From positions 32,087 to 96,086 of the forward strand of contig CALWVF010000039.1 of the NCBI GenBank assembly GCA_944384925.1: a stretch of DNA of 64,000 bases, in the 5' to 3' direction. A model generated the notes under the pieces. The model was not told the DNA's origin. It saw only the letters and a program-made list of their open reading frames with translations, and ran no database searches. The DNA is from an uncultured Clostridia bacterium (GTDB lineage Bacteria; Bacillota; Clostridia; Oscillospirales; Acutalibacteraceae). Position 1 is the first letter of the stretch. Every line of letters begins with the position of its first letter. Below, one piece after another: positions 17,437 through 33,407 of this stretch. Both the position numbers and the translations under genes were made by a program.

Positions 17437-20205
17437 TTAAACTTTTAAATTTTCAATCTTATATTTTTTACCTAGATAATTAATCCTACCATTTTCATCT
17501 TCTATTGGGTATTCTATTGTTCCTCCAGTGTTATAAATTATATTCTCAAATATTTCTTTGCCAAACATTGCAAATAGTATGTCCTTGTTATAATTAACCT
17601 TGTCCTTGTAAAACAAATCAACTAAACAATTTACAATCTTATATGTATTAGAATCCAAGCAAAATAACTTGTTCCTATAAAGTGTATAGATATTAACCAC
17701 ATCATTATTTAAACCGTCATCGTATTTATTCTTTTCATGTGATTTAATAAGTCCTTTTAAAACCCCTCTAAGCTCATCAACTATTGAAGATACCCCCATA
17801 TAAAAAGCTTTATCAAAAGTATTCCCCTCTCTTTTATATAAATCAATAAAATTTATATTTCCTTCTGCCTTTACATTAAATTTAATATCTTTAGATACAT
17901 TTTCCATGTAATGTGACAATACATTCATGGCACTATTATTATCTATAACAGGGCAATGTTTATAATATCTTTTGATAAATTCATCCTGCTCTCTACTTCT
18001 TTTCTCTAAGCACAACACCTCCTTCAAGGTTATTCCCCATCTAGCCTTTGTACTTAACTCATAGTCCTGCCTCCACTTCTTATAATCCTTTCTTACATGA
18101 TTATAAAGATAAATAAAAAAGTATGGATATTTATTGCACAATAAAGAATTGTTTAACGCTTTTCTGCATTTAATCTCTTCACTATCCGTATTTTCAATCT
18201 CATTATACCTATTCCAAATATTAGGGATACCCTTTACAGGTTTGCCTATTTTAGCTTTATCAATTTGAGCAGACTGCATTTTACAAGCCATTCTCATTCT
18301 ATTAAGCAATATGTTATATTCTTTTGTATCACTCGAAAAATTATCCATTAATGTTCTAATTATAGTTGCACAGTTTGTAATTCTTCCTATAATACTCCCA
18401 AATGTAAATTTATCAGCTAATTGTAAATCTCTTTCAGAAAGCACCACCTTATTCGGTTTAGGAGCCTGATATAAAACTGGTAAGTCATCTGAATATGTAC
18501 TTTGAATAATAATTGGTTCACTTGTAGTTGCTAAAATATCGTAGTCAAAGTCACTACCCGCAAACCTTAACGTGTACTCATCATATATATTTGTAATAAT
18601 TCCTGTATAACAATATTTAAACCACTCGTCAAGACTATTATCCTTTTGTAAGTCTACAACCAAATGCTCACTTAAATAAGTAAGCGGTGAACGCATACAA
18701 TCTACTTTTGATACGTTTTTGTTATTCCAATAGCTAGAGTAAAAATGTCCTGATTTTATTAAGCCCTTTACCTCCAATCCACATGCATGTTCCATAAAGG
18801 CAAAGCTATCAGGTACAATGACTTGAAAATTTCCATCAACTAAAATTTTACCCATACAAGCATTGTTAATTTTTGTTTTTATATTTTTGTTTATTTTAGA
18901 CTTTATATATTTGTCATTTAAAAGCTCTTTATTGGCAATTAAACATTTAAGCCAATAGTTTGATGAACCCTTCATAAAATTTTTTAATTTGTCTTCCGTT
19001 AAGCTTGTACCCATTAAAAATAATATTGTATACCAATAATTATCATAAGAGACCCCTTTTAGATATTCTACTGTCTTTAAGCAAAGACTTTTTACTTTAT
19101 TACTGTCTAAATTAAGGGTCTGGATAAATTGATAATTTAATTTAAGGATATCCTTATCCTGCTTTGGTGTAAAAAGAGATACTCCCCAATCAAGCTTATT
19201 CTTTTTACAATTAGCCTTATACTCTTCCAAACTGCCATATGTATTCCAAAGTTTAAATTGACTTTCTGTAAGGATTATATCTATGTCCCTTAAATCAGCC
19301 TTTTTAGTAGTTCCATTCTCATCCTTATAAATCGTTTCAATCTCATAATTATCATTGTTGTAAATCTTACAAAACCTTTGTATGTCAAACACGCTTACCA
19401 TGCCTTTAATCCATGGCGCTCTTATGCACCACTGTGCTGGAATATAATCAAGTTCTAATTCATCCGCCCATTCCTTTGCCTTATGAGGAGTTATAAGTCC
19501 GTTGCCATCAAATAGGTTAAATTCAACAGGGACAGTTTTTCTTTCAATAATATCATCTTCGTCCTTACTGTTTGTCTCCGTAACCCACCACACATCAACG
19601 TCCTTTGTTCTATAGCAGTCTGGAATCACGCAAAAGCGAGGTGCTGTGACCACTTTTGTAGCCGAGCTTGATATACCTAAATATGCATTATATTTAGACG
19701 GTGTAATCGGTATGTCTCTATTCCTTCCATTGTCTAGTCTATTTAACAATTGTTCAGCTATACGTTCTTCAACAAACACAACTCTTGAAGTTCTACCCTG
19801 TGCAGCTGAACACGATACCCTGATATATTTTTTATTATTAACGTATAATCCATTTTGAAAGATATAATCGTAATCTTTATTTGATTCCATAGTAATTACA
19901 GCGTATTCTTCTATAAGCATTGTATCATAGATGTACCTCTGCAAATACTTTACTTTATTCAAATTTTCCTTATTTTTAGCTTGTCTCTTAATTTTGTCTC
20001 TCTGATTATAGTATACTTCTATAGATTGCTTATCATGCTTTTGACCTTTAATGTCCCTTATTAGTCTTAGCATTTGATTATCTGAAAGTGAAATAATCTT
20101 TTTATATTTTAATGCCTCCTCAAAGGAAATGTTTATTTTAAAATTATATTCTTTTAGCCATGAAGAATTAAATTTGTAAACATAAAACTGCCTATTTACT
20201 TGCAT
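17437..20205 (-). CDS. YonO/QDE-1-like single-subunit two-barrel RNA polymerase (putative phage late-gene RNAP)
   Basis: 922 aa. CMRSPLTYLSEH followed 45 aa later by FAGSDFDYDILAT. This parallels the RNPCLHPGD...GSDLDGD catalytic-loop arrangement of cellular RdRP/YonO-type polymerases. The gene heads the late operon. Confidence 0.6.
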   Translation of the reverse strand: MQVNRQFYVYKFNSSWLKEYNFKINISFEEALKYKKIISLSDNQMLRLIRDIKGQKHDKQSIEVYYNQRDKIKRQAKNKENLNKVKYLQRYIYDTMLIEEYAVITMESNKDYDYIFQNGLYVNNKKYIRVSCSAAQGRTSRVVFVEERIAEQLLNRLDNGRNRDIPITPSKYNAYLGISSSATKVVTAPRFCVIPDCYRTKDVDVWWVTETNSKDEDDIIERKTVPVEFNLFDGNGLITPHKAKEWADELELDYIPAQWCIRAPWIKGMVSVFDIQRFCKIYNNDNYEIETIYKDENGTTKKADLRDIDIILTESQFKLWNTYGSLEEYKANCKKNKLDWGVSLFTPKQDKDILKLNYQFIQTLNLDSNKVKSLCLKTVEYLKGVSYDNYWYTILFLMGTSLTEDKLKNFMKGSSNYWLKCLIANKELLNDKYIKSKINKNIKTKINNACMGKILVDGNFQVIVPDSFAFMEHACGLEVKGLIKSGHFYSSYWNNKNVSKVDCMRSPLTYLSEHLVVDLQKDNSLDEWFKYCYTGIITNIYDEYTLRFAGSDFDYDILATTSEPIIIQSTYSDDLPVLYQAPKPNKVVLSERDLQLADKFTFGSIIGRITNCATIIRTLMDNFSSDTKEYNILLNRMRMACKMQSAQIDKAKIGKPVKGIPNIWNRYNEIENTDSEEIKCRKALNNSLLCNKYPYFFIYLYNHVRKDYKKWRQDYELSTKARWGITLKEVLCLEKRSREQDEFIKRYYKHCPVIDNNSAMNVLSHYMENVSKDIKFNVKAEGNINFIDLYKREGNTFDKAFYMGVSSIVDELRGVLKGLIKSHEKNKYDDGLNNDVVNIYTLYRNKLFCLDSNTYKIVNCLVDLFYKDKVNYNKDILFAMFGKEIFENIIYNTGGTIEYPIEDENGRINYLGKKYKIENLKV

Positions 20206-20336: not shown

Positions 20337-21323
20337 TTATTTTGCAGATTCTTGACAGTTACTAACTTTATTATTTTTAGATATATCTAGCAAGTAATTT
20401 GACAACTCTTTTTGTTCAGCTAAATAATTTGGAGGTAATGTAAAGTTATTTGTTTCTTTTAAAAGATTCTTTTCCGCTTGTAAATCAAAAAAACTTATCA
20501 ATCTTTTATTTAATTCAATGCGGTTTTCTTGATACATATTCACTGAATACTTATCACTGTTCACCCGGTTATCCCCATTTACTTTTATACAATAGGAGCG
20601 GTAAAAGTAGTCCCAATCATACTTACTATTAATTAACATATTTACCTTTTTATAATATTGCCTAGATTTAAATACAGAAAACACATCCGCTAAATTCTGA
20701 AAGTCCATATCTTCTAATACTTCACTTTCAATATCAATTATTTTATTTACATCACAAATGTCCGCTTTATATGTTCGATTTGCTTTGATTATCATATAAC
20801 ACTTCTCAAATGATATAATTCCTTTCTTTTGCATGGTTAATAATGCATTTTCAATAACCTTAATAAACTTAGATTTAGTACGACTCAAAAAGTTATTAAT
20901 GCTATATTTATCATAACCCATGCTTTTTAATTCTCTTAAAAGCTTTACATCCATATACCTTTGATTAGCCATTCCGCAAAGTATTATAGTTTGATTTAAG
21001 GTAAGATTTAATTCAAGCTCTTCATTGGTTTCTACATTGTCCTTACAAATAATAGATTCGATATGGTCTAAAAAAATATCCGTTATAAGCTTTTGATAAA
21101 GACTTCTTCCATTATTTATTCTGCCGTCATATTTATTAAGCGGAGGATTATTTATTTTAGTTATTTTTATTCTTTGCCCATTTTTAACATATGCAAAATA
21201 TCTTAGCCATTCTTTAATCTGCGCTTTTTTAGAGTTCGATGTTAATATGGGTTGGTTTAAGTAATTGCATAACTCTTTATAATTCTTAAAAACTTGTCCA
21301 ATCTTCAAATTATTTAAGTTCAT
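20337..21323 (-). CDS. Hypothetical protein
   Basis: 328-aa ORF, divergent from the 21514 operon. No motif recognised. Confidence 0.4.
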   Translation of the reverse strand: MNLNNLKIGQVFKNYKELCNYLNQPILTSNSKKAQIKEWLRYFAYVKNGQRIKITKINNPPLNKYDGRINNGRSLYQKLITDIFLDHIESIICKDNVETNEELELNLTLNQTIILCGMANQRYMDVKLLRELKSMGYDKYSINNFLSRTKSKFIKVIENALLTMQKKGIISFEKCYMIIKANRTYKADICDVNKIIDIESEVLEDMDFQNLADVFSVFKSRQYYKKVNMLINSKYDWDYFYRSYCIKVNGDNRVNSDKYSVNMYQENRIELNKRLISFFDLQAEKNLLKETNNFTLPPNYLAEQKELSNYLLDISKNNKVSNCQESAK

Positions 21324-21513
21324 TTAACCGCTCTCCATATAACCTTATTTAGCATTCATAAATTTATTCCTTCAGGTCTATACCAGACATAATAATATAA
21401 TAATACATATAAACTTTTGTGAAAATCTTTCCTCTTTTGCTCTCTATAGTGCAATATTACACCATTTTTAGAGGTATAGTGATATTAATTATATTTAATA
21501 GGGAGGCAACTCT

Positions 21514-23148
21514 GTGGTGGCATATTTAAATAATTCTGTACACTGGTGTAATAACTGTAAAATACCTATTATTCAGCCTAATATTAAACACTTTAAAAAA
21601 TGTCCTTTATGTGGAGAATATACTAAATATTTAAGTAAGGATTTACGTCCTGTTTTTCCAGAGGAGCGCTTACTGCTTGAATTAATTACTAAAGTAAAAC
21701 CTAATGCATATTCTACTTGTTCCGTTTGGTGTAATGCATCAACATACTATATAAACGGTGAAGCATGTAAACTAAATAACAATATTTTTAAAAATGTAGA
21801 CATAGAAAGAGTGAGAAGTTCTTTTTACAAATATAATAAATCAAACATATATAAATATTTTGACGAATACATGGAGAAGTTTACTATAGCAAATCTAGAA
21901 CATCTAAACTATATAAAATACTTAGCTACTAAGTTTATAATTGATGTATCAAATACATACCCAGACATGTATAAATATATATCATTCTCTGGTGGGAAAG
22001 ACTCAACTGTTGTTGCCGACTTAGTTATAAAAGCTTTAGGTAATACATCTATTCCATATATTTTTTGTGATACTACTCTTGAATATCCCTACACATTAGA
22101 CTACATAAAAAGACTTAAAGAAAACCCAAATATGTTAATAAAGATTGCTAGAAACAAAGAACATGATTTTTACAGTATGTGTGACGATATAGGAGTTCCC
22201 ACAAGAATGAAAAGATGGTGTTGCACTATATTCAAGACAGGAGCAATAAGTAAGCTCCTTAAAGTGCTCTTTGATGACAAAAGGTTAATATATTTTAATG
22301 GTCTTAGAAATTCAGAGTCTAATATACGAAGCAAATATGAAAGCATTAGTTCATCAAGTGAACAAAAAATACAAAACCAAATATCTGTATCTCCAATAAT
22401 AAAATGGAAGGACTATGATGTTTGGCTTTATATTATGAGTGAAAAAATAGACTTTAATTATGCCTACAGATTAGGATTCCCAAGAGTAGGCTGTTTTTGT
22501 TGCCCAAATGGTAGCACTAGAAATGAAATTCTTGCAAAAATATTTTTGCAAGATAAGACAGAAAGATGGTACAAATATTTACTAAACTTTGCGAATAAAT
22601 TAGGGGCTGATAATCCTTATAAATACGTAAATGATGGTCTGTGGAAGTCAAAGCAGGGTGGTAATGGTATAAAATCATACGATGAAGTGTCTATATCGAA
22701 TAAAGTTTGTACAATAGATGAAAACGCTGTCTCTTATAGCATTGGCAAAGATATTACAAATGAATTTTATACACTGTTTATCCCATTTGGAGATGTCAGA
22801 AGAGATTTAGGTAAAAAGCTATTAGATGAAACTTTTGTATTGAAAAATGGAACTCCTATTATTTCTATCCAAATAAAGCCCAATAATATAGTCAAAGTTA
22901 AAACCATGAATGTTAAAGACCATAAATCCCTTCAAAAACAGATAGCATACCAAATAACAAAATACAAGTTATGTCGAAGGTGTTATAAGTGTGAGGCTGT
23001 TTGTCCGAAGAAAGCTATAAGTATAGAAAATAATGAGTACATTATAGATAAAAGCAAATGTATCCACTGTATGTCATGCACAAAGAACGAATACATACAT
23101 AGTGGTTGTTTAATGAAAAAATATTTAAGGGTGAGTGAAGAAAAATGA
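21514..23148 (+). CDS. DndC-like PP-loop ATP pyrophosphatase (PAPS-reductase family) with N-terminal zinc ribbon and C-terminal 2x[4Fe-4S] ferredoxin domain
   Basis: GTG start after GGGAGG. CNNC-x15-CPLC. ISFSGGKDSTVV (PP-loop). MKRWCCTIFK and PRVGCFCCPNGS cysteine motifs. CRRCYKCEAVCP and CIHCMSC...GC ferredoxin motifs. Confidence 0.7.
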   Translation: MVAYLNNSVHWCNNCKIPIIQPNIKHFKKCPLCGEYTKYLSKDLRPVFPEERLLLELITKVKPNAYSTCSVWCNASTYYINGEACKLNNNIFKNVDIERVRSSFYKYNKSNIYKYFDEYMEKFTIANLEHLNYIKYLATKFIIDVSNTYPDMYKYISFSGGKDSTVVADLVIKALGNTSIPYIFCDTTLEYPYTLDYIKRLKENPNMLIKIARNKEHDFYSMCDDIGVPTRMKRWCCTIFKTGAISKLLKVLFDDKRLIYFNGLRNSESNIRSKYESISSSSEQKIQNQISVSPIIKWKDYDVWLYIMSEKIDFNYAYRLGFPRVGCFCCPNGSTRNEILAKIFLQDKTERWYKYLLNFANKLGADNPYKYVNDGLWKSKQGGNGIKSYDEVSISNKVCTIDENAVSYSIGKDITNEFYTLFIPFGDVRRDLGKKLLDETFVLKNGTPIISIQIKPNNIVKVKTMNVKDHKSLQKQIAYQITKYKLCRRCYKCEAVCPKKAISIENNEYIIDKSKCIHCMSCTKNEYIHSGCLMKKYLRVSEEK

Positions 23149-24338
23149 TTATAAATAAATCTATAAACAAAGACAACATAAGCCAGAAAACAAAAATAAA
23201 TAGGAAACAAGCAATAGAAATTATCCTTTCAGGTGGGAATCCATCAAACAAAGCGGTACATAACATTATTAGTAGCGTTTCACAACAAGACTTAGATTTT
23301 ATTTGTATACAGCATAAAATCCTACGTCCTTATATTAATTTCGGGGAAATATACAAATCATGTGAAAATTATGGTAAGGGATTTATCCCTGTTCTTATAT
23401 CTATGATTATAAAAAATAATATAGATTATATTGTTATTGAAAAGGACGGAGAAGAAGTGGATTTAAATTCCAGTATTTTTGAAGATATTGAACTTAATCC
23501 CTCACTCTATACATTAAAATTTATAAGCAATCATAGTCAATATGATTTATATAAAAATATATTTTCAAGGAATGATGATGGACTAAATATATTTTCTAAC
23601 ATAGTTTACGCCATGCAAGCATGGTTTTTTAATTTAAGTAAATATACAATAATCATATCTAAAAGCTATATGGGTCAAGGCAAATTTAATCCTATCAAAA
23701 AAGAAATTACTGAATTTAAATCTTCCTTAAAAGTTCTACAAAATAACCCTTACTATTACATTAGCGAGATTCTCCCACAAATATTTGAAATTGACACGTA
23801 TGCTCAATTAAAAGGTGCAAAAGAATATATTGATTCAACATTGGAAAGTTTAAGAAGTACCCTAGTTACAGACATTTACCACTTATTCCCCACAGGTTTA
23901 AAATCATGGTGTAAAAATCTACCAGAAGTAACTAAACAGAAAATTTTTGAAAATGGTGAAGAATATTTTTTATCTTTATGTAAATCAGATATTTTAAATA
24001 ATGAATTATTAGATAATATAGTAAATTATATTATAGGAATACCAATAGAAAATTGGAATGAGGATACCCCTTTAATATTTTATAATCGTCTTACGGAAAT
24101 CAAAAGTGTTATTGAAAACTCTACAATACAAAATGAAAAAAGCAAGTTTTTAATAAGGTATACACATGATGGTGAAGCAGAAATCTGCAAAGTATTAAAT
24201 ATGCATGATAATTTAGACAAACAAATAAAAGATATGTTTATAAATGATTTTAAAAAGTTATTTAATGATTATGGTAACAGCATATCCCACTCTGATAAAG
24301 TAGGACTAGCATTAAAAATAGCTATGGGGGTAGATTAA
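23145..24338 (+). CDS. Hypothetical protein (operon member, no recognisable domain)
   Basis: 397 aa. ATGA overlap with the upstream gene. No motif recognised. Confidence 0.5.
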   Translation: MIINKSINKDNISQKTKINRKQAIEIILSGGNPSNKAVHNIISSVSQQDLDFICIQHKILRPYINFGEIYKSCENYGKGFIPVLISMIIKNNIDYIVIEKDGEEVDLNSSIFEDIELNPSLYTLKFISNHSQYDLYKNIFSRNDDGLNIFSNIVYAMQAWFFNLSKYTIIISKSYMGQGKFNPIKKEITEFKSSLKVLQNNPYYYISEILPQIFEIDTYAQLKGAKEYIDSTLESLRSTLVTDIYHLFPTGLKSWCKNLPEVTKQKIFENGEEYFLSLCKSDILNNELLDNIVNYIIGIPIENWNEDTPLIFYNRLTEIKSVIENSTIQNEKSKFLIRYTHDGEAEICKVLNMHDNLDKQIKDMFINDFKKLFNDYGNSISHSDKVGLALKIAMGVD

Positions 24339-24342
24339 TAAA

Positions 24343-25476
24343 ATGATTTATTTAGATAATGCTGCAACAACATATCCAAAACCAATGTGTGTTTATGATG
24401 ATGCGGATAAATTTTATAGAGAATTTGGGGTATACCCTGGTCGTGGAAACCATTACATGTCTATGAAAGTAGATAACTTGATTAATGAGACAAGACAAAA
24501 AATATTAAATCTATTTAATGCTCCAATTAATTACAAAGCTGTATTTACTCCATCCGCTACTTTTTCGGCTAATTACATATTAAATGGTTTAAGTATAAAA
24601 GATAATGCAAACATCTATATTTCTCATTTTGAGCATAACTCTATTTTAAGACTGCTAAATAATCTAAAAAAGAGAACAAATATTAATCTATCATTTTTAG
24701 ATGCAAATCGTCAAACTTTGATGTATAATATAAATGAAATTAAAAATCAATTTATAGAATTTAATCCAGATATCGTTATTCTTAACCACGCAAGTAATGT
24801 TTTTGGCAATGTTGCCCCTGCTCTTGAAATATTCAGCCTAGCAAAAAAATATGGTGCTACTACAATACTAGATTGTTCCCAAACATCAGGACTTATAGAA
24901 GTTAATTTAAAACAAATAAAGTCTGATTTTACAATATTCGCAGGTCATAAAACATTGTATTCACCTTTTGGTATCGCTGGTTTTATTATGAATAATGCAA
25001 AGAATATTAAACCATTAATATTTGGTGGGACAGGCTCAAACTCTGCGAGCGCTAACATGCCAAAAACATATCCTGAAAGATTAGAAGCTGGGAGTATAGA
25101 TGTTTATGCGGTTGCTGGGTTATATTCATCTTTGGACTGGATAAATAGAATTGGTATTAATAATATATTAGAAAAAGAATTGTCCCTACATAAAATTGCA
25201 ATAGAACGACTTTCTAAACTAAAAAACGTAAAAATATATGTGCCATTATGCGAACATATAGGGATTATTTCTTTTAATATAAAAGGCTATAATACTGATG
25301 AAGTTGCCTTAATATTAAACAATAATAATATTGCTGTAAGATCTGGATTACACTGTGCTCCTGATGCACATAAATTTGTCGGTACTTTTCCTAATGGAAC
25401 AGTACGAGCATCCTTTAGTTATTTTAATGATGTTGAAGATATTAATATGTTGTTATCTATTTTAAAAAATATATAA
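24343..25476 (+). CDS. Cysteine desulfurase (class V PLP aminotransferase fold, SufS/CsdA-like)
   Basis: 377 aa. YLDNAATTYP N-terminus, FAGHKTLYSPFG (PLP lysine), VRSGLHCAPDAH (catalytic Cys). Confidence 0.8.
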   Translation: MIYLDNAATTYPKPMCVYDDADKFYREFGVYPGRGNHYMSMKVDNLINETRQKILNLFNAPINYKAVFTPSATFSANYILNGLSIKDNANIYISHFEHNSILRLLNNLKKRTNINLSFLDANRQTLMYNINEIKNQFIEFNPDIVILNHASNVFGNVAPALEIFSLAKKYGATTILDCSQTSGLIEVNLKQIKSDFTIFAGHKTLYSPFGIAGFIMNNAKNIKPLIFGGTGSNSASANMPKTYPERLEAGSIDVYAVAGLYSSLDWINRIGINNILEKELSLHKIAIERLSKLKNVKIYVPLCEHIGIISFNIKGYNTDEVALILNNNNIAVRSGLHCAPDAHKFVGTFPNGTVRASFSYFNDVEDINMLLSILKNI

Positions 25477-25502
25477 GAATAAATTATATTGGGGGTAACA
25501 AG

Positions 25503-28500
25503 GTGAAGATTATTGAATCAAATGATATATTTGGAAAAAAAACATCTTCTCTTTTAAAAGAACAACTAGAAGCCTCAAAAAATTTCATTTATATCTCTGT
25601 AGTAAGCAATATATATAACGAAAGATGCAAAACTAATCCATTTTTTAAAAGCTTAGAAATCAACTGTAATACTTTTAAATCTAAAAACGATTTTGAGTCA
25701 TTTATAACAAAACAAGTAAGAAAGCAAAAAAGCTATCTTCCTTTAGTAGACATGTACTTTATTCTAAAAAGATTAATAGATTCCTATTTTAATGAAAATG
25801 AGTCCAAACACACCTTATTTAAAACTTTATATTACAAGTTATTTGAATTATATAAATTTCTTATTTTTCATGATATAGAAAAGATTGATAACGAGACATT
25901 GCAATACATAAAAAAGAAATACTCCGATAGTTATTTTACTATATTTGATATTTATAATAAATATATAGATATAGTCAATCAGATTATTAATTATGTAAAT
26001 TCATGCGAACAAAATCAAATACATTATAAAATTCAAAAATTAAATGTAAGTCTATTTATAAAAAAATCTGAAGCTATACCTTTTAATACCTTTATTTCAA
26101 GGCAAAAAGAAGAAATAAATAACATTTTAAAAAATATTGACACACTATACTTAGATGGTTTTATTGCTTTCAATGATTTTGATAAATATATAATTTCTAC
26201 TGCTCAAAAGCTTAATAAAGAAATTGTATTTATTACTAAGAACCTACATGATGACATTAATTATGAATTTTTATTAAATAATGTTTATGGCTATGGAATA
26301 AATCAAAACATTGAAAATATTATTCTCTCTGAAAATGAAAATGGTACTACTAACAGTATAGATTATGTCAGAAATAATATTTATACACATAACATAAACA
26401 TTTCTCGTGATAAATCAGATTTAATAGATGACGGTGGAATAAACTTTATCTACCCCTTTCTTAATAGAAATGAAGAAATAAAATATATTGTTAATTCTAT
26501 TAGTGAAATAATACAGAAAGAAATTAAAAGTGGAAATGTAGAGCATATTACTGATTTAATAGAAAATGATATTTTAATTGTATCCGCAGTAAATAAAGAT
26601 TTAATGGCTAAACATTTTGATAATCAATTTACAAAAGTAGGATTATTTGTTTTTGATAAAATTCCTGAAGGATTATTTGAAAAGGAAATCGACATTAACA
26701 CATTTAAAAATATTTACTATAACATAAAGGATTTCCTTTCCGATAACGTGTCATACAAAGATGGTACTGCTCTAAATAATCAAGAAAAATTAGTACTATT
26801 TTATAAAGCATTTTTTAGAATAAAAGTACCCACAAGGCTAGATTCATTATTCTCATCTCCTATCTTAGATTTCATATTTCAATTATATAGTATCTCTAAT
26901 GAGGGCATAACCATAGAAAAATTTAAAGCTATTCTTTTTTCAAACTGGTACTATCATGTGGGTATAGATAATATAAAATGGGACACATTCCTGGGTGCAT
27001 TTTGCCAAATAGAGCTATACTTTGAAAATAAAGCATCCCTAAAAGAATGGATAGATGAGATAGTAAGAATAATAAAGCTAAGTGAAAATATAAAAGATGA
27101 TGATAAATATAAATTCCATCCTTTTAATTCTGTATCGCATTATGATTTAAAACAATTACTTAGTATCATGAGAGAGTTAGACTCTCTCTGTGTAATGTTA
27201 TCCTCTGCACCATCGGATTTAAATTCACACATTTCTCTACTCAAAGATAAAATTATCTATTCAAATAGGATGTTTGAATTAGAAGATGATAAACTGACGG
27301 ACTCTCAAAAGATAATAAAAGAGTTTTGCAATATACTTAATAATTTCACCTCTGATTCTTCCGTACAGAACCTTGATTCTGATTTCTTTATAAAACATTT
27401 AAAGAATATATTATCATCCATAGAAGTCGAAGAAGAAAGTAATAAACATAATTTTAATCTACAAATTCAAAATATGCTAAATCTTAAACATTATAAGTAT
27501 GTGTTTTTCATGGGGTTGGAAAATGAAGAATATCCTAGAAAGCATGAAAATATATTTCCATTTAATCAAGACATTATTGATATTATTAGGCTTCTTAAAA
27601 TCAATTCTTATAATATAGACATATATGACCATAATCTTTTGATGGAAAATTTCTTTTTCAAAAATGTACTAGATTTTACTGAAAAACATATTTGGTTTAC
27701 TTGTTCACAATATGAGGGCAAACGTAAAAATCATTTTTCTATATATGCTGAAGAAATTTCTACTTCATTCAATCATGAGCTAAGCTTTACTCCTCCGTAC
27801 ATAGATAAAGAGAATCACAACAGTACTAATATCACAAAATCCAAGACTATTAAAGCTATTGATAAAAAAGTATACCCATTGAAAGAATTGGTTACTTTCC
27901 CCCTTTGTCCAAAGCTATATTATCACTTGTACGTAAACCCTATACCATTATACTATAAAAGTAAAATACATCTTAAAATGTATGCTGAAGCTGTTATGTA
28001 TGCAGACCTAATGGAAAGATTTATGACGTATAATCTTTTAAATAAGAAATGGTACACATCCAATAGTGATGAATCCTTTAAAATACTTGATGATTTATCC
28101 GAAATAAGTATTAATGAAATTAAAAAATACTTTGGTTTTTTGCGAATACCTGACTTTGACCAAATAAAAAAAAGAGTACCTTTTAGAATTAAAAGAATTA
28201 TAGAAGATTACATAATTAAAAATCTTAAATATCATACTTATACCATTGTTAAATCTAACGGCAAAGTATATCCTTGTGGTGGATTCGATGTAAAACTTGA
28301 ATACGATACAGCTATATTCAGCAACGAAAAGGGTAGTAGAAAAATTGACCAAAATAAAATTTTCTTAGACTTTCTTACTTTAAAATGTACTGCCAGAGAA
28401 GTTAAAGAAAAACATTACAAAGACATGTTAAACCTGTTAAATAGTAAAAATAGATATCTTGATAGAATATTTTATGCTAATAGAATGATAAGCAAAATAA

Positions 28501-28706
28501 ATGTTCAGTTTGACAGCAATGTTGATAGGTTTATTAATGGATATGATGGTGGTATAGAACGTGTTGCAAATTTAAGGAAAGATATTCTTATCACTGATTT
28601 TTCTAAGGTGAAACCCTACCCTAGTAACTTTTGTGACTATTGTATTGCTAGAGATATTTGTATGGGAGGAAAAGAGTCACAGAAGGTTGTGGAGGTGATA
28701 GATTGA
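25503..28706 (+). CDS. AddB-like protein: degenerate helicase-like N-terminal region + C-terminal iron-staple PD-(D/E)XK-type nuclease domain
   Basis: 1067 aa. Vestigial P-loop (IFGKKTS). C-terminal Cys tetrad FPLCPKLYYH ... CDYCIARDIC (C-Xn-CxxCxxxxxC), as in AddB/Cas4/Dna2. The catalytic (D/E)xK motif was not cleanly identified. Confidence 0.6.
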   Translation: MKIIESNDIFGKKTSSLLKEQLEASKNFIYISVVSNIYNERCKTNPFFKSLEINCNTFKSKNDFESFITKQVRKQKSYLPLVDMYFILKRLIDSYFNENESKHTLFKTLYYKLFELYKFLIFHDIEKIDNETLQYIKKKYSDSYFTIFDIYNKYIDIVNQIINYVNSCEQNQIHYKIQKLNVSLFIKKSEAIPFNTFISRQKEEINNILKNIDTLYLDGFIAFNDFDKYIISTAQKLNKEIVFITKNLHDDINYEFLLNNVYGYGINQNIENIILSENENGTTNSIDYVRNNIYTHNINISRDKSDLIDDGGINFIYPFLNRNEEIKYIVNSISEIIQKEIKSGNVEHITDLIENDILIVSAVNKDLMAKHFDNQFTKVGLFVFDKIPEGLFEKEIDINTFKNIYYNIKDFLSDNVSYKDGTALNNQEKLVLFYKAFFRIKVPTRLDSLFSSPILDFIFQLYSISNEGITIEKFKAILFSNWYYHVGIDNIKWDTFLGAFCQIELYFENKASLKEWIDEIVRIIKLSENIKDDDKYKFHPFNSVSHYDLKQLLSIMRELDSLCVMLSSAPSDLNSHISLLKDKIIYSNRMFELEDDKLTDSQKIIKEFCNILNNFTSDSSVQNLDSDFFIKHLKNILSSIEVEEESNKHNFNLQIQNMLNLKHYKYVFFMGLENEEYPRKHENIFPFNQDIIDIIRLLKINSYNIDIYDHNLLMENFFFKNVLDFTEKHIWFTCSQYEGKRKNHFSIYAEEISTSFNHELSFTPPYIDKENHNSTNITKSKTIKAIDKKVYPLKELVTFPLCPKLYYHLYVNPIPLYYKSKIHLKMYAEAVMYADLMERFMTYNLLNKKWYTSNSDESFKILDDLSEISINEIKKYFGFLRIPDFDQIKKRVPFRIKRIIEDYIIKNLKYHTYTIVKSNGKVYPCGGFDVKLEYDTAIFSNEKGSRKIDQNKIFLDFLTLKCTAREVKEKHYKDMLNLLNSKNRYLDRIFYANRMISKINVQFDSNVDRFINGYDGGIERVANLRKDILITDFSKVKPYPSNFCDYCIARDICMGGKESQKVVEVID

Positions 28707-30787
28707 AATATACTGATTTAAATAATAATGAAGTTTTATTGACTAATGCACAATTAGAAGTGATAAAAAATGATACATACCCTTTATATATTACTGCCCA
28801 AGCTGGAACTGGCAAAACTGAAACTCTAATTCAAAAAGTTTTATATATCCTTGAACATGATAATAATGCAAGCCTTAAAAATATGGTTATAATCTCTTTT
28901 ACCAATAAAGCAACTGATGAATTAAAGCAAAGGATTTTTTATAGTCTTTATCGTAAAAGCTTATTATACTATAGAGACGGCAAAATAGGCACTGCAAATA
29001 GATTAAAAAATGAAGCATACATGGTTAATATTTCTAATATATCAACTATACATGTTTTCTGTGAAAGCTTATTGCGTGAATATGGGATACATATAAACTG
29101 CTCCCCCACATATAAAACTTCATTATCTTCAATTAAAGTAAATGATATAATCAGTAATATTGTTAGGCAAGCATATTCAAAAGAAAACGTCCAAGAAATT
29201 CCTGAAATAACAATGATATCATTAATATCTAAAATACTCGAATATAATAATAACTGCGGAATATACACAGTTAATAACATATACAGAAATACTCAAACTC
29301 CTCTAGGAAAACTAAGAAGCAAATTTATTGATATATATAATGAAGTTGTTTTGGAACTTGAAAACACTAAGTTAAGCCGGAATCTATTAAGTTTAAATGA
29401 TTCTATTATCAAAACTACTGAACTTCTAAAGAATGAATATGTAAGAGAAAAAGTAAAGTCAAAGTATAAATATATATTTATAGACGAATATCAAGATACA
29501 AATACTCCTCAATATAATTTAACAAAAGAACTAATTGATATAGGTATAAATGTATTTCTCGTTGGTGATGAAAAACAGGCTATATATGAATTTAGAGGTT
29601 CAGGAATAGAGAACTCTAAACAAATGCATAAATACATATCAAAATTCAATAATGTACAATTATCATTAAATGAAAATTTTAGGAGTGACCCAAATGTTAT
29701 AAAAGCTATTAATCATATCTTTACTAGCAATATTAAATTCTATAATAAATTAGTTGGTTTCGACAAATCACCATTATCCATACCAAACTGCAAAGAGATA
29801 TCAGAAGACAACCCTGTATGGATAGATTCAAAAAATAATATAATAGATATAATAAAAAAAATTAAAAAAGAAAAAACCATTAGATGTAATCCTATTAGCT
29901 ATAGTGATATTGCGATTCTTTGCCGTAATAATTATATGATTGACAGTATTGGAGAAGCTTGTAAATCTGCTGGTATCCCTGTAGAAATTATAGGAGGACG
30001 TAGCTTTTATAAAACAAAAGAGGTAATAGACATTTATAAATTTTTTAACTATATCATATATAAGCGTGATGAATATAAAAAGGAACTATATTTAACCGAT
30101 GCATACAATTCATTTATTAATTATGACTGTGGTAACTTTGATGAATTTTTAAACAGCTTATGTGAAAATTCCAAAAACAATTCTGCTAATGATGTAATAG
30201 ATTACATAATTAATAACACCATGCTAGAACAGTATTACATGAATAATAATTCATATCAAGCTATTTCAAATTTATCAAAATTAAGTGCTATAGCGAACAA
30301 TACTTTAAATACAAATTTCACTTCTGCACTTAACTTTTTAGATTTCATAGCAAGGAAAATAAATCATGAAGCCGAAGAGGACGAAGCTCCTATATCTGAA
30401 AACAATAGAAAAAAAGGAGTTGTTTCCTTATATACAATACATAAATCAAAGGGCTTGTCCTTCCCTATAGTAATTATAGCTAACACGGATAAAGCATTAT
30501 TAAATCCAAAGAAATTCCCAAAAGTCATAATGGAATGTAAAGATGGTAAAACAGCAGTCGGATTCAGTGAGACAATTATTGGTAAAGAGGATATACAGTA
30601 TAAAAAATTATTAGATATGCGTATATCAAAACTTATAGAAGAAGAATTACGGTTACTGTACGTTGCTTGCACAAGAGCTAAACATATGTTAGTTTTTTCC
30701 TCTAACACATCTATTGACAAATATGGTCAACAATTACCAGATTCATGGTTAAAATGGATTATAGAATCAGGATATTTTAATACATAG
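28703..30787 (+). CDS. UvrD/AddA-type SF1 helicase (no nuclease domain)
   Basis: Probable TTG start at 28703 (GGAGGTGA SD, TTGA overlap with the upstream stop); the track ORF starts at 28658. Motifs AQAGTGKTETL, FIDEYQDTN, VGDEKQAIYEFRGS, NFRS, TIHKSKGLSFPIV, LLYVACTRAK. Confidence 0.8.
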   Translation: MKYTDLNNNEVLLTNAQLEVIKNDTYPLYITAQAGTGKTETLIQKVLYILEHDNNASLKNMVIISFTNKATDELKQRIFYSLYRKSLLYYRDGKIGTANRLKNEAYMVNISNISTIHVFCESLLREYGIHINCSPTYKTSLSSIKVNDIISNIVRQAYSKENVQEIPEITMISLISKILEYNNNCGIYTVNNIYRNTQTPLGKLRSKFIDIYNEVVLELENTKLSRNLLSLNDSIIKTTELLKNEYVREKVKSKYKYIFIDEYQDTNTPQYNLTKELIDIGINVFLVGDEKQAIYEFRGSGIENSKQMHKYISKFNNVQLSLNENFRSDPNVIKAINHIFTSNIKFYNKLVGFDKSPLSIPNCKEISEDNPVWIDSKNNIIDIIKKIKKEKTIRCNPISYSDIAILCRNNYMIDSIGEACKSAGIPVEIIGGRSFYKTKEVIDIYKFFNYIIYKRDEYKKELYLTDAYNSFINYDCGNFDEFLNSLCENSKNNSANDVIDYIINNTMLEQYYMNNNSYQAISNLSKLSAIANNTLNTNFTSALNFLDFIARKINHEAEEDEAPISENNRKKGVVSLYTIHKSKGLSFPIVIIANTDKALLNPKKFPKVIMECKDGKTAVGFSETIIGKEDIQYKKLLDMRISKLIEEELRLLYVACTRAKHMLVFSSNTSIDKYGQQLPDSWLKWIIESGYFNT

Positions 30788-30887
30788 TTTTTGTTAATGT
30801 CTAACCTTTGTAGCTTTAGCTACAAAACCAAACGGAGTGAACGTATGTGAACGTAGTGCGGTAGAACTGTACATGTATCTAAAAAAT

Positions 30888-30954
30888 AAAAAGAGGACAT
30901 AATTAAGGCATAATATATATATTATATATTTACCCTTAAAGTTGTCCTTTTTTT
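30888..30954. terminator. Long imperfect hairpin between convergent genes (bidirectional terminator)
   Basis: AAAAAGAGGACA...TGTCCTTTTTTT arms with an AT-palindromic loop. A-run on the left and T-run on the right. Confidence 0.55.
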
Positions 30955-30967
30955 ATTTATGCAATTA

Positions 30968-31888
30968 TCATGTGATTTTGCCAATAAATCCATTAACTTT
31001 TCTTTTTAAATTATTTTTTGTTGGTCTGGTATATTTAAATGTTGTTTCGACTGATTTATGCCCTGCAAAATAAGCTATTTCATGAAGTTTTCCATCCTGC
31101 TCCAGTCCGTTTGTACAAAACCAATGCCTTAACTCATGTGGATGAATTTTTTTATTATACCTTTTAAATATCCTATTAATGCCTGATGTAGAAAGTTTAT
31201 CTGATTTTCTACTAATGAATACATATGGTGAATTTACATGCGCTCCATAATTTAATTTATTCCGTTCATTCTTTAGATACTTTTGCAATATCTTAGTACA
31301 CTCCATATCTAAATATACTGTTCTTTGTTTTTCTCCTTTCCCTGAATGTATCACAATTTCTTTTTTACTTAAATTCACATCTTCAAGTTCAATACATGCC
31401 ATTTCTTGTACTCTTAATCCTGTACATGCTAATAAATAAGCCATAGCATAATTTCTTAGATTATTGTCTTTTTTTAAATTACTTAAAAACTCCATTACTT
31501 CCCACTTTTCTACATCTGTAGGATTCAGGTATTCAGTTTGTACTTTTATCATATCTCTTTTTATTATTACTATTTCAACCATTTTTCCTATGTCAATCAA
31601 ATACTCATTATAACGCTTTAATACTGATAGTTTATGATTGATTGTCTTAGCATTTTGACGTAAACTCTCTTTAAGATACCTTTTATATAATAAAATATCA
31701 TCCCTTTTTAAATCTCTAATCATTCCAACATTGTTATACTGCCATTTATAATATAGGTTAAGTTCTATTCCATAGCTTTTAATAGTGTTTTCAGAGTAGG
31801 AATTACTTTTTAAATATTCTGTAAAGCCTCTAATACACCTCATTATGTCTTGATTAACACATGTTTCTATTTTATTATTTGTATCCAA
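30968..31888 (-). CDS. Tyrosine recombinase (XerC/D-phage integrase family)
   Basis: 306 aa. ACTGLRVQE (Arg I), HELRHWF (HxxR), AGHKSVETTFKYT (His/Tyr). Confidence 0.8.
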   Translation of the reverse strand: MDTNNKIETCVNQDIMRCIRGFTEYLKSNSYSENTIKSYGIELNLYYKWQYNNVGMIRDLKRDDILLYKRYLKESLRQNAKTINHKLSVLKRYNEYLIDIGKMVEIVIIKRDMIKVQTEYLNPTDVEKWEVMEFLSNLKKDNNLRNYAMAYLLACTGLRVQEMACIELEDVNLSKKEIVIHSGKGEKQRTVYLDMECTKILQKYLKNERNKLNYGAHVNSPYVFISRKSDKLSTSGINRIFKRYNKKIHPHELRHWFCTNGLEQDGKLHEIAYFAGHKSVETTFKYTRPTKNNLKRKVNGFIGKIT

Positions 31889-31944: not shown

Positions 31945-32787
31945 TTAATTTATATCCACTTCCTCTAGCAAATTCTGAACAGCATTTATAACATCGTTCC
32001 ACGTTATATCGCTTGCATAGTTATATTCGTTTCTATACCTCTCCCATAGATTTTTAAGTGTTTCATCATTTTTTATTCTGTTCATATCTAAATCTAAGTT
32101 TGAAAATAAAACACTTGAATTTCTTGCCTCTGACGTAGCTTTTATTGCTTTTGAAAGTAGTTCTTTGTCAATAGTCCCTCCATATATTTTTTGCAGTATG
32201 TAAATATCATAAAAGTCTCTCATTCTTGTATTCGATATATTTCTTGATATTACTGTTTCAATCTTCTCCGCTAATACTGTTTCTAAAGTATAAGCAAGTA
32301 TATGTATTTTTCTTTCTTCAAACAATAGATTAAAACTATATGATATTTCTTTAGGTGTTATTTTATCGCCAGTTGTAACGTCAACTTTAATAGGAATTTT
32401 AATACCATCAAATGTTGTGTCTATAGTTAATCTTAGCCCCGTGTAGTCAGCTTCCTCTCTGATATCTTTTATGTCTCGTACCTTCATCAAAACCCCATCA
32501 TTAACTTGTATTGAAAGAATTTCATCAAACGCTTTTCTAATGGATTCCTCTGTTAATTTATATCCCTTTATTGTTGCATCTAAATCCATAGTTGAACGTG
32601 TGTCTATTCCCACTAATGCGGCTACCAGCATACCACCCTTTAATATAAAGTTTGTTTGATATTTTGATAATGATATTCTTTCAAGTAATCTTTCAAGCAT
32701 ATAGTTCCTCAAAATAATTTGTGCATTTATATCTTTCTCTTTAGCCATGTTGCGTATTATCGCCTTTAGCTGTCTTGATGATTTCAA
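31945..32787 (-). CDS. abiEii: AbiEii/AbiGii-family nucleotidyltransferase toxin (type IV TA)
   Basis: 280 aa. N-terminus LKAIIRNMAKEKDINAQIILRNYMLERLLERIS and FILKGGMLV...STMDLDATI (GG + DxD NTase motif). Confidence 0.8.
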   Translation of the reverse strand: MKSSRQLKAIIRNMAKEKDINAQIILRNYMLERLLERISLSKYQTNFILKGGMLVAALVGIDTRSTMDLDATIKGYKLTEESIRKAFDEILSIQVNDGVLMKVRDIKDIREEADYTGLRLTIDTTFDGIKIPIKVDVTTGDKITPKEISYSFNLLFEERKIHILAYTLETVLAEKIETVISRNISNTRMRDFYDIYILQKIYGGTIDKELLSKAIKATSEARNSSVLFSNLDLDMNRIKNDETLKNLWERYRNEYNYASDITWNDVINAVQNLLEEVDIN

Positions 32788-33407
32788 AGTAATACCTCCA
32801 TGTAATGCCTAACTTGATTTTCTACTCCCATTTTTTTTGCGTATTCAAACAATCTAGGAATATTTTTATTTTTGCTTTTTGAGTATGTTTGAAGTGAGCT
32901 ATTAAAAATACTACTCTCTATCCTACTTCTGCTCCTAACTACATCACAAATGGTTCTCTCCATGTCATATGCTTTAACAATGTTTCCATAAACAGTTTTC
33001 TTTTCTATAATTCCTAAATTGTAAAGTTCTCCTTTTATAGTGTATACCTTTGCTCCATATTTTTTTATCTTAGAGTACCCATACCCTGTTTTAACAGTAA
33101 CAGAATAATGTAAGGGGTCTCTATCTGTTAATTCATGGAGATATAATGCTGTCTCGTGAGAAAAAACAGATTGCTTGTACTTTACTTGAAGTATATACAT
33201 CTCGTCCTCTAAAACATCTGTCAAGACATATATTCCCCTCTCTACACGCTCAATTTCTCCTAATTTAACTAGCTTTGACAAACACTTATCTGAAATATTC
33301 ATCTCTCTTACTTGCCTTGCTAATATTAGTCCATTATTTTCTTTAATCATTCTTCTTAAAAAATCAACTTGATTCAAAAAAATCATCTCCTCTGCGTAAA
33401 TGTACAT
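32784..33407 (-). CDS. abiEi: AbiEi-family antitoxin/transcriptional regulator
   Basis: ATGA overlap with abiEii. N-terminal wHTH GLILARQVREMNISDKCLSKLVKLGEIERVERGIYVL. The true start may be TTG ~33377 after GAGGAG. Confidence 0.75.
   Translation of the reverse strand: MYIYAEEMIFLNQVDFLRRMIKENNGLILARQVREMNISDKCLSKLVKLGEIERVERGIYVLTDVLEDEMYILQVKYKQSVFSHETALYLHELTDRDPLHYSVTVKTGYGYSKIKKYGAKVYTIKGELYNLGIIEKKTVYGNIVKAYDMERTICDVVRSRSRIESSIFNSSLQTYSKSKNKNIPRLFEYAKKMGVENQVRHYMEVLL

Follow-up and report, generated by a model that had tools for sequence, protein, structure and literature searches.

Organization of the five-gene operon

The subject of this study is a five-gene operon at positions 21514-30787 of a 64,000-nt stretch of DNA from an uncultured Clostridia bacterium (contig CALWVF010000039.1, positions 32,087 to 96,086). 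This whole 64-kb stretch is called the window below. The operon is predicted to encode a reduced Ssp-type writer of DNA phosphorothioate (PT), consisting of SspD, the SspC tail and SspA, joined to an AddB-like/UvrD-like pair. The list of open reading frames (ORFs) confirmed five coupled ORFs on the plus strand. Gene 1 (21514-23148, GTG start) encodes a putative SspD-type sulfurtransferase of 544 aa. Gene 2 (23145-24338) encodes a 397-aa protein that appears to be a free-standing homologue of the SspC/BrxC C-terminal tail. Gene 3 (24343-25476) encodes a predicted SspA-type cysteine desulfurase of 377 aa, dependent on pyridoxal phosphate (PLP). Gene 4 (25503-28706, GTG start) encodes an AddB/RecC-like protein of 1067 aa, and gene 5 (28703-30787) encodes a UvrD/PcrA/AddA-like superfamily 1 (SF1) helicase of 694 aa.

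The genes are closely coupled. GGGAGG lies 7 nt ahead of the GTG start of gene 1. Genes 1 and 2 overlap in an ATGA at 23145-23148, as read from the sequence, and only a 4-nt gap lies ahead of gene 3 at 24343. The 26-nt gap between genes 3 and 4 contains TTGGGGGT, with a GGGGG Shine-Dalgarno motif, ahead of the GTG at 25503. At the junction of genes 4 and 5, GGAGGTGA is followed by a TTGA stop/start overlap at 28703-28706. The mechanical ORF list gives 28658 as the start of gene 5. The independent NCBI gene call is 694 aa long, which corresponds to a start at 28703 and backs the choice made in an earlier reading of this DNA (the original prediction). The tightly packed plus-strand operon described there was also borne out, with matching coordinates, junctions and 190-bp upstream gap.

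The genes flanking the operon on both sides lie on the minus strand. The 190-bp upstream intergenic region (21324-21513) lies between gene 1 and a minus-strand phage gene encoding a 328-aa protein. A scan for the sigma-70 promoter consensus returned 78 sites where 77 were expected, which is not above chance. In this AT-rich DNA (27-30% GC) the scan was uninformative. The promoter in the 190-bp region is presumed from position only. Of the divergent promoter region proposed earlier, the 190 bp and the divergent neighbours were found, whereas the promoter itself is positional. Downstream of gene 5, a long hairpin at 30884-30961 carries an A-run and a T-run on its flanks. Its folding energy was -28.9 kcal/mol (z = -7.15), and none of 200 shuffles folded equally well. 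The closing bidirectional hairpin, previously placed at 30888-30954, is real, and it is likely the terminator for both the operon and the convergent recombinase gene.

Genes 1 and 3 encode a predicted sulfur core

Gene 1 matched Pfam PAPS_reduct (6.4e-32) and carries in addition a C-terminal Fer4/4Fe-4S dicluster domain. The PADLOC scores were 6.6e-81 for BrxP, 1e-15 for SspD and 1.8e-11 for DndC. The match to the BrxP profile covers positions 21-517 of 779 only, and the DUF4007 part is absent. With the DndC model TIGR03183, gene 1 reached 41 bits (cut-off 290), and with the uncharacterised archaeal PRK13795 models the scores were far under the cut-offs. Gene 1 was 47-48% identical to SspD of sspD-sspB-sspC-sspA operons in alignments spanning 98% of its length. 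Its nearest relatives number about ten (54-81% identity), and after them come thousands of 571-aa proteins at 47-48% identity and 98% coverage. The two 571-aa relatives that were looked up both lie in canonical ssp operons on recombinase-bearing elements. The order of the canonical operon is sspD, sspB (DUF4007), sspC (BrxC-PglY_N, approximately 1200 aa) and sspA (Aminotran_5). A midpoint-rooted neighbour-joining tree of gene 1 separated no clean clade, and identity tables were used instead.

The motifs SGGKDS at 159, RWCC at 234 and GCFCCP at 326 were found in gene 1. It also has an N-terminal Zn-ribbon-like CxxC...CxxC motif and a C-terminal 2x[4Fe-4S] ferredoxin motif, neither of which is listed in the original prediction. 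A ferredoxin-type extension is known in BrxP and some SspD proteins (PMC12914056; PMC12839542). BrxP has been equated with a fusion of SspD and SspB, and BrxP, BrxC and a desulfurase are enough for PT (PMC12914056; PMC12839542). Because of the BrxP score, the full-length identity to SspD, the relatives in canonical operons and the published ferredoxin extension of BrxP/SspD, gene 1 is assigned as a predicted SspD/BrxP-clade enzyme and not as DndC. The original prediction had called it DndC-like; a PP-loop enzyme of a sulfur core stood, but the DndC type gave way to SspD/BrxP.

Gene 3 matched Aminotran_5 (3.4e-77) and exceeded the cut-off of TIGR01977 (390.5 bits, cut-off 377). Its PADLOC scores were 6.7e-30 for SspA and 2.1e-29 for DndA, and its identity to SspA of canonical loci was 39-42%. 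The GHK lysine lies at 201 and the SGLHCAP cysteine at 334. These data indicate that gene 3 is probably an SspA-type PLP-dependent cysteine desulfurase. The pairing of a desulfurase with a PP-loop enzyme, proposed earlier as a sulfur core of the phosphorothioation type, is supported by homology. The motifs that had been quoted for genes 1, 3, 4 and 5 were all found.

Gene 2 resembles a detached SspC tail

Gene 2 had no match in Pfam (to E ≤ 10), NCBIfam, PADLOC, PDB sequence or shallow-profile searches. Among the proteins of canonical loci, it matched the C-terminal part of SspC (BLASTP 97-186 bits). A gene 2 profile built from seven lineages, which are described below, aligned end to end with this part of SspC. 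Its positions 2-394 correspond to SspC residues 746-1199 of 1202 (198 bits, E = 9e-54 at Z = 1e9). The results suggest that gene 2, which contains no ATPase domain, is a free-standing homologue of the SspC/BrxC C-terminal tail, that is, the winged helix-turn-helix (wHTH) plus coiled-coil region, without the AAA+ ATPase. The corresponding region of BrxC contains one or more wHTH modules, a long coiled coil and a small apical subdomain (PMC12839542). A 2025 EcoSal review asks whether the BrxC 'tail' coordinates modification with restriction (PMC12707154).

The original prediction had recognised nothing in gene 2, and this did not hold. It had also stated that neither SspB nor SspC was present. 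This is correct for SspB and for the AAA+ body of SspC, but the SspC tail is there as gene 2. No operon protein matched DUF4007, and a tblastn search of the whole window with two SspB proteins gave nothing significant. SspC residues 1-745, searched in the same way, had no match in the window. Gene 2 was also considered as an SspB/DUF4007 homologue, which was ruled out (hhalign probability 0.6%). Overall, no homologue of SspB, the SspC ATPase or the PLD nuclease described below was found anywhere in the 64-kb window.

Genes 4 and 5 resemble an AddAB-like pair

No direct match to gene 4 was found in Pfam (to E ≤ 10), NCBIfam, PADLOC or PDB searches. An exhaustive profile search showed that the gene 4 family has 135 representatives, whereas a word-indexed homologue search returned only 5 relatives for gene 4 and 4 for gene 2. 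Since the profile search found 135 relatives and plain BLAST gave the link between gene 2 and SspC, 'orphan' calls from the indexed search alone would be misleading. Among 36 distant full-length relatives of gene 4, 18 matched Pfam PDDEXK_1 (best 4.7e-7) and 4 matched UvrD_C. In NCBIfam, addB_Gpos (TIGR02773) was matched by 7 of the 36 (best 3e-11), cas4 by 5 and recC by 1. The gene 4 family aligned with its most distant subgroup over 735 columns (hhalign E = 1.4e-38). The profile of this subgroup in turn matched AddB of B. subtilis (3u44_B, 4.7e-14) and RecC (0.0067). The subgroup aligns with AddB across the helicase-like domains and the DGF..F motif region that they include. Its C-terminal CxxCx5C falls opposite that of AddB, in a stretch that is weak and not significant. 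A profile of 53 gene 4 sequences gave only a marginal Cas4 match in PDB (E = 0.085), located at the CxxCx5C motif.

LCP at 801 and CDYCIARDIC at 1044 were found in gene 4. The 'iron-staple' cysteines C802, C1044, C1047 and C1053 vary little or not at all among the 53 sequences. Gene 4 has no Walker A, and none was found in any family member examined. The data support, transitively, an AddB/RecC-like identity for gene 4, with a putative helicase-like scaffold lacking Walker A and a C-terminal nuclease-like domain. The protein had earlier been named an AddB-like nuclease; the AddB likeness stands through the profile links, but the second word has to be weakened to nuclease-like, for reasons given with the weighing below.

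Gene 5 matched Pfam UvrD-helicase (2.7e-51) and UvrD_C (3.3e-33) and contains helicase domains only. It gave partial matches to addA_Gpos (210 bits, cut-off 708), recB and pcrA, all far under the cut-offs. The motifs AQAGTGKT, DEYQD, GDEKQAIYEFR and VACTR are present. Gene 5 is therefore predicted to be a motif-complete, active-looking SF1 helicase of the UvrD/PcrA/AddA type without a nuclease domain. Pfam and the motifs agree here with what had been proposed.

Conservation of the five genes in other lineages

The five-gene set was found, homologous and syntenic, in at least seven diverged lineages counting the window, on differing mobile elements and with differing flanks. Besides the window, these lineages are L002, L018, L003-5, L013/14, L001 and L019. 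L002 is a close relative of the window operon. L018 is an intact set from an infant-gut sample and lies beside a decayed serine recombinase and HsdM. In L003-5, the set is flanked by genes for a serine recombinase and a sigma-70-r4 protein, and L013/14 has neighbours of this serine recombinase/sigma-70-r4 type plus phage lysin and tail genes. In L001, the copy is decayed, its order is rearranged and its surroundings are chromosomal. L019 is a six-gene variant, in which a PLD nuclease is inserted ahead of gene 4. The truncated contig L015 apparently carries the same six-gene PLD type.

The identity to the window across lineages was 49-81% for gene 1, 27-80% for gene 2, 48-85% for gene 3, 31-86% for gene 4 and 36-88% for gene 5. 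The pairwise divergences correlate among the five genes (Spearman 0.51-0.85; the pairs are not independent). The catalytic motifs are kept in all seven lineages. Because of the syntenic homologues in seven lineages, the correlated divergences and the overlapping starts and stops, we believe that the five genes form one conserved functional module. Co-occurrence of the five genes elsewhere had been named beforehand as a test, and it was found in seven lineages with unrelated flanks. Close relatives of gene 4 were found in none of the phage collection, IMG/VR, JGI metagenomes and GTDB representative genomes. Since the last three contained no close relative of the system, it is rare.

In 3 of the 7 lineages, gene 4 or gene 5 is broken, and genes 1-3 are intact. 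A frameshift in L003-5 splits gene 4 into 984 + 93 aa, and the helicase of L013 is split into 225 + 430 aa. In L001, an in-frame deletion fuses gene 4 to gene 5, with loss of the CxxCx5C cluster and Walker A. The product of this fusion, the 1695-aa P0003, was considered as a Rosetta-stone link between genes 4 and 5. Since both the Cys cluster and Walker A of the helicase are missing at its junction, it was rejected as a deletion derivative. The breakage pattern fits a toxic effector arm, which is suggestive only. In L003 (13197-15965), and also in L004 and L005, the UvrD-like helicase bears a RadC/JAB-like domain (PF04002) at its C-terminus and reaches 922 aa in total.

The AddB-like module beside Ssp writers

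Species-representative genomes were scanned with proteins of the more distant PLD-type variant as queries, and only these recovered genomes. A (PLD)-AddB-like(-UvrD-like) module adjoins Ssp writer genes in four reference genomes. In Thermosyntropha lipolytica DSM 11003 (L025), PLD, AddB-like, UvrD-like, SspD, SspB, full-length SspC (with Walker A) and SspA genes form a tight same-strand array. The locus of Herbivorax sp. ANBcel31 contains AddB-like, UvrD-like, SspD, SspB and SspC genes, followed by the contig end. In a Tissierellia metagenome-assembled genome (MAG), the last part of a canonical Ssp locus (SspA, part of SspC, a PLD-helicase and AAA_23) is followed by PLD, AddB-like and the contig end. 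In Clostridium sp. UBA3947, the last part of such a locus, with SspA, PLD-helicase and AAA_23 genes, is likewise followed by PLD, AddB-like and the contig end. The Walker A of canonical SspC is GPYGKGKS. The PLD partner matches the PLD domain of the NgoFVII restriction endonuclease (7.8e-10).

The T. lipolytica writer is complete, and for this reason the PLD/AddB-like/UvrD-like trio is read as an add-on that occupies the place of a restriction arm. The three loci cut by contig ends are consistent with this. The module beside Ssp writers favours a putative restriction arm, and a shared motor is still compatible with it. AddB-like/UvrD-like pairs were also found elsewhere. One (L022, 23-24% identity) occurs by itself among housekeeping genes, and a distant pair lies in a defence island beside an Sp-DndD/AAA_23 pair (L016/17). 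We consider the AddB-like/UvrD-like pair to be a portable two-gene module, as judged from these gene neighbourhoods.

It was reported that 83.9% of sspBCD modules are without SspE or SspFGH, and because most of them lack these arms, further restriction partners were predicted (Wang et al. 2021, PMC8092258). The (PLD)-AddB-like(-UvrD-like) module is a candidate for such a missing partner of sspBCD writers.

Several other genes were observed at these loci. Directly upstream on the same strand in T. lipolytica (L025:485-4885) are genes for a 425-aa coiled-coil protein, an Hsp70-like ATPase (1.3e-40) and a 563-aa protein without a Pfam match, and these three may be further components. In canonical Firmicute ssp operons (L006-L012, L020, L021), a PLD-SNF2 helicase fusion, a gene of approximately 61 aa and an AAA_23/SMC-like ATPase come next. 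The same canonical ssp operon occurs on two 'Bacteriophage sp.' faecal contigs. In GCA_017656345.1, a 67-aa Sp-DndD protein (PF20306) and AAA_23 form a pair beside a distant AddB-like/UvrD-like pair. Overall, this suggests that Ssp-associated effector modules form a shuffled pool.

Comparison with known systems

The operon is most readily compared with the Ssp system (SspABCD with SspE or SspFGH). It has an SspD-type enzyme, an SspA-type desulfurase and the SspC tail. Its order opens with sspD, as in Firmicute ssp operons, the carriers are of the same recombinase-bearing kind, and the logic of a writer plus an effector arm may be shared. In contrast to Ssp, it is without SspB (DUF4007) and without the ORC/Cdc6-type AAA+ body of the approximately 1200-aa SspC. 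The product of SspABCD is single-strand PT at a short motif, e.g. C(ps)CA, and some hosts can do without SspA. Of the known arms, SspE is a DUF262-type NTPase/nickase, while the other consists of SspF (with Walker A), SspG and the FtsK-like SspH (PMC8092258). No operon protein matched SspE, SspF, SspG or SspH in PADLOC. Since there are no such matches and the published descriptions differ, the arm of the operon is neither SspE nor SspFGH.

BREX type 4 (BrxP-BrxC-PglZ-BrxL) also makes PT. BrxP is the best PADLOC match of gene 1, the extra domain and the ferredoxin extension known from BrxP and some SspD are shared, and gene 2 corresponds to the BrxC tail. However, gene 1 has no fused DUF4007, and the operon is without full BrxC, PglZ and BrxL. 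The double-strand PT systems Dnd, PbeABCD and DndI share the core of a desulfurase and a PAPS-reductase-family enzyme, as well as the concept of a writer with a PT-aware arm. They differ in that the DndC match of gene 1 is weak and no DndB, DndD, DndE, DndFGH or Pbe protein is present in the operon.

Genes 4 and 5 resemble AddAB, RecBCD and AdnAB in placing a UvrD-family motor beside a helicase-like scaffold that ends in a C...CxxCx5C nuclease-like domain. Unlike AddAB, gene 5 lacks the AddA/RecB nuclease domain, and gene 4 shows neither an evident (D/E)xK nor a direct AddB score. Moreover, AddAB is a housekeeping repair locus, whereas genes 4 and 5 lie together with PT genes on mobile elements. 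Gene 5 also matches GajB-type UvrD helicase profiles of Gabija (1.7e-46), but no GajA (OLD/TOPRIM nuclease) is present in the operon, and this match reflects the shared UvrD fold only.

PADLOC 2.0 has no model for genes 2 and 4 and does not contain the five-gene combination. A UvrD/AddB partner is not mentioned in the comparative PT/BREX papers PMC10853773, PMC12839542 and PMC12914056. The combination was not found in the searched literature, whose coverage does not extend to subscription journals. It appears to be an undescribed variant of phosphorothioate-based defence. The earlier suggestion that the combination is undescribed holds for PADLOC 2.0 and the searched literature.

Proposed function and alternative explanations

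We believe, with a probability of about one half, that the operon is a mobile, Ssp-derived PT defence with an AddAB-like effector arm that also handles DNA for the writer. By homology, gene 3 would draw sulfur from cysteine as a persulfide, and gene 1 would take over this sulfur and insert it in the DNA backbone. Genes 4 and 5 may act as the effector arm, which would load on DNA, unwind it, and damage or degrade DNA that is unmarked. In the sister variant, the PLD restriction-type nuclease would work with the pair. The helicase pair may also be the ATP-driven DNA-handling partner of the writer, and the SspC tail encoded by gene 2 may be an adaptor tethering SspD to this pair. Such an organization would be like that of a restriction-modification system, which marks self and attacks unmarked DNA. 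The system would be cargo of phages and recombinase-bearing elements, and it would shield the element and the cell that carries it against other invaders.

The DNA-recognising and ATPase functions of every canonical writer are provided by SspB and the AAA+ body of SspC. A P-loop ATPase is held to be an essential core part of PT writers in Dnd, Ssp and BREX-4 (PMC12914056; PMC12707154). Because SspB and the SspC ATPase have been lost and gene 5 is the sole P-loop motor left, the pair probably took over the DNA handling of the writer. The same absence would also suit a machine that only writes. In that case, the AddAB-like pair would replace the SspB nickase and the SspC ATPase without any restriction, and the mark itself would be the function, either epigenetic or protecting the DNA of the phage or element from host nucleases (counter-defence). 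An ATPase together with a DNA-recognising/nicking part is considered a requirement of every known PT writer (PMC12914056; PMC12707154), and orphan PT writers are common (PMC8092258). The operon also lies within a phage genome, and the non-canonical nuclease motif of gene 4 may mean that it only nicks or binds. We nevertheless consider this explanation rather doubtful. The same module accompanies complete writers with SspB and full SspC, a PLD restriction-type nuclease joins the module in sister variants, and further lineages lie on non-phage elements or in a chromosomal setting.

It is also conceivable that genes 1-3 are a decayed writer, non-functional or repurposed, and that the AddAB-like pair alone works, in phage recombination/end-processing or as a stand-alone defence. 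Stand-alone pairs of the family exist (L022; L016/17), and two canonical writer parts are absent. Yet seven lineages that have diverged to 27-49% identity retain undamaged genes 1-3 with every catalytic motif, and it is genes 4 and 5 that break instead. The SspC tail is kept as a full-length ORF of its own, conserved end to end, which points to selection on the tail and not to decay; we therefore regard a decayed writer as improbable. Other sulfur chemistry, such as base thiolation in DNA or RNA/tRNA or relay to a small molecule, would fit the PAPS-reductase/PP-loop superfamily, which includes tRNA thiolases and CysH, and the scores of gene 1 on the PRK13795 models. It seems very improbable to us, as the nearest large family of gene 1 is SspD in canonical ssp operons, the operon also encodes an SspC tail, an SspA-type protein and DNA enzymes, and PT is the product of BrxP/SspD-type proteins that share the ferredoxin extension of gene 1 (PMC12914056; PMC12839542). 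Finally, an Ssp remnant and an AddAB-like pair could be two unrelated systems side by side in a defence island. Defence genes do cluster, AbiE lies next door, and the pair also occurs without ssp genes. Against such mere adjacency, which has the least credit of all these explanations, the order is kept in seven lineages with overlapping or close genes and unrelated flanks, the divergences are correlated between the genes, and the pair also adjoins canonical ssp genes in four genomes.

Several results speak against a PT defence with an AddAB-like arm. No precedent exists for a writer that lacks SspB as well as the SspC ATPase, and such a writer might not write PT. The AddB link of gene 4 is transitive only, and its predicted nuclease residues are non-canonical. 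The canonical catalytic (D/E)xK was not recognisable in the 53-sequence alignment; acidic residues at 956 and 987 are conserved in 46/53, but lysine in 17/53 only. Since these residues are non-canonical and PLD is absent, the five-gene form may have no active nuclease. The AlphaFold2 models, made before the deeper alignments, were unusable according to the predicted local distance difference test (pLDDT), with 42.4 for gene 2 (4-sequence alignment) and 42.6 for gene 4 (5-sequence alignment). With a pLDDT of about 42, AlphaFold lends genes 2 and 4 no structural support. Foldseek with the poor gene 4 model gave nothing at E ≤ 0.001, and this result was disregarded. The breakage of genes 4 and 5 is not significant, as these genes make up 57% of the coding length and the chance of all three breaks falling in them is approximately 0.19. 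The context sample comprises 12 neighbourhoods and one genome scan and is not a census. Because a stand-alone pair exists in L022, the pair need not be PT-dependent.

A bolder version of the proposed defence is that the SF1 helicase and its AddB-like partner are a third motor solution for PT, displacing the SspC/BrxC AAA+ ring and the SspB nickase, so that one machine both writes and reads PT. The detached SspC tail would then couple SspD to the helicase motor. The helicase-nuclease would go on degrading DNA up to PT linkages, whose nuclease resistance would make them a 'self' stop signal, by analogy with Chi and AddAB. We hold this version to be unlikely. If true, it would reveal the role of the BrxC/SspC tail, a question raised in the 2025 EcoSal review (PMC12707154).

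The five-gene form can be viewed as a natural dissection of SspC/BrxC, in which the ring and SspB are gone and the tail is kept as its own gene by SspD. The survival of the tail next to SspD points to the tail as the contact to the sulfurtransferase or to the effector. The operon offers a small, testable system for the coupling of PT writers to motors and to restriction. It is also a further case of PT machinery on a large temperate-type phage of low-GC Firmicutes.

Phage context and neighbouring genes

The whole window is phage DNA. It encodes a portal, a weak large-terminase match, a DnaB-like helicase, a RecD-like helicase and three recombinases, and its DnaE-type polymerase is 45% identical to that of Clostridioides phage LIBA6276. 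No close DNA relative of the window was found in the phage collection. Upstream of the operon, a YonO-like single-subunit RNA polymerase of 922 aa is encoded on the minus strand (17437-20205; Pfam RdRP 8.2e-11; phrog_8308 1.1e-150). It has the fold of eukaryotic RNA-dependent RNA polymerases. Bacillus phage BUCT082 encodes a protein with 45% identity to it, and further matches were obtained with C. botulinum phage c-st, Enterocloster phages and yonO of SPbeta. The polymerase with these matches marks the element as an SPbeta-/c-st-like large phage. The contig from which the window comes measures 121,840 bp, as is usual for SPbeta-like phages and clostridial phage-plasmids. With this size and no host flank within the window, we prefer 'large temperate-type phage' to 'prophage'.

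A Xer-like tyrosine recombinase gene (30968-31888), convergent with the operon, is the sole gene between the operon and an AbiE pair. This pair, AbiEii toxin (8.7e-40) and AbiEi antitoxin, is encoded on the minus strand at 31945-33407, immediately downstream. The phage surroundings and the accessory site next to AbiE, as described in the original prediction, were confirmed, and the site is a cargo region of a mobile element. A 753-aa Lon-like AAA+ protein (54176-56437, minus strand; phrog_4871 'ATP-dependent protease') was considered as BrxL and rejected, its best PADLOC matches being the candidate-system proteins PDC-M37B (3.4e-40) and DolB (8e-37).

No Pfam or PADLOC model matched the 328-aa protein encoded divergently from the operon (20337-21323, minus strand); it matches phrog_36702, a family of unknown function. 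Its gene is kept beside the operon in L002 only. The remaining lineages carry in its place a divergent 139-aa sigma-70 region-4 protein, which is a possible regulator.

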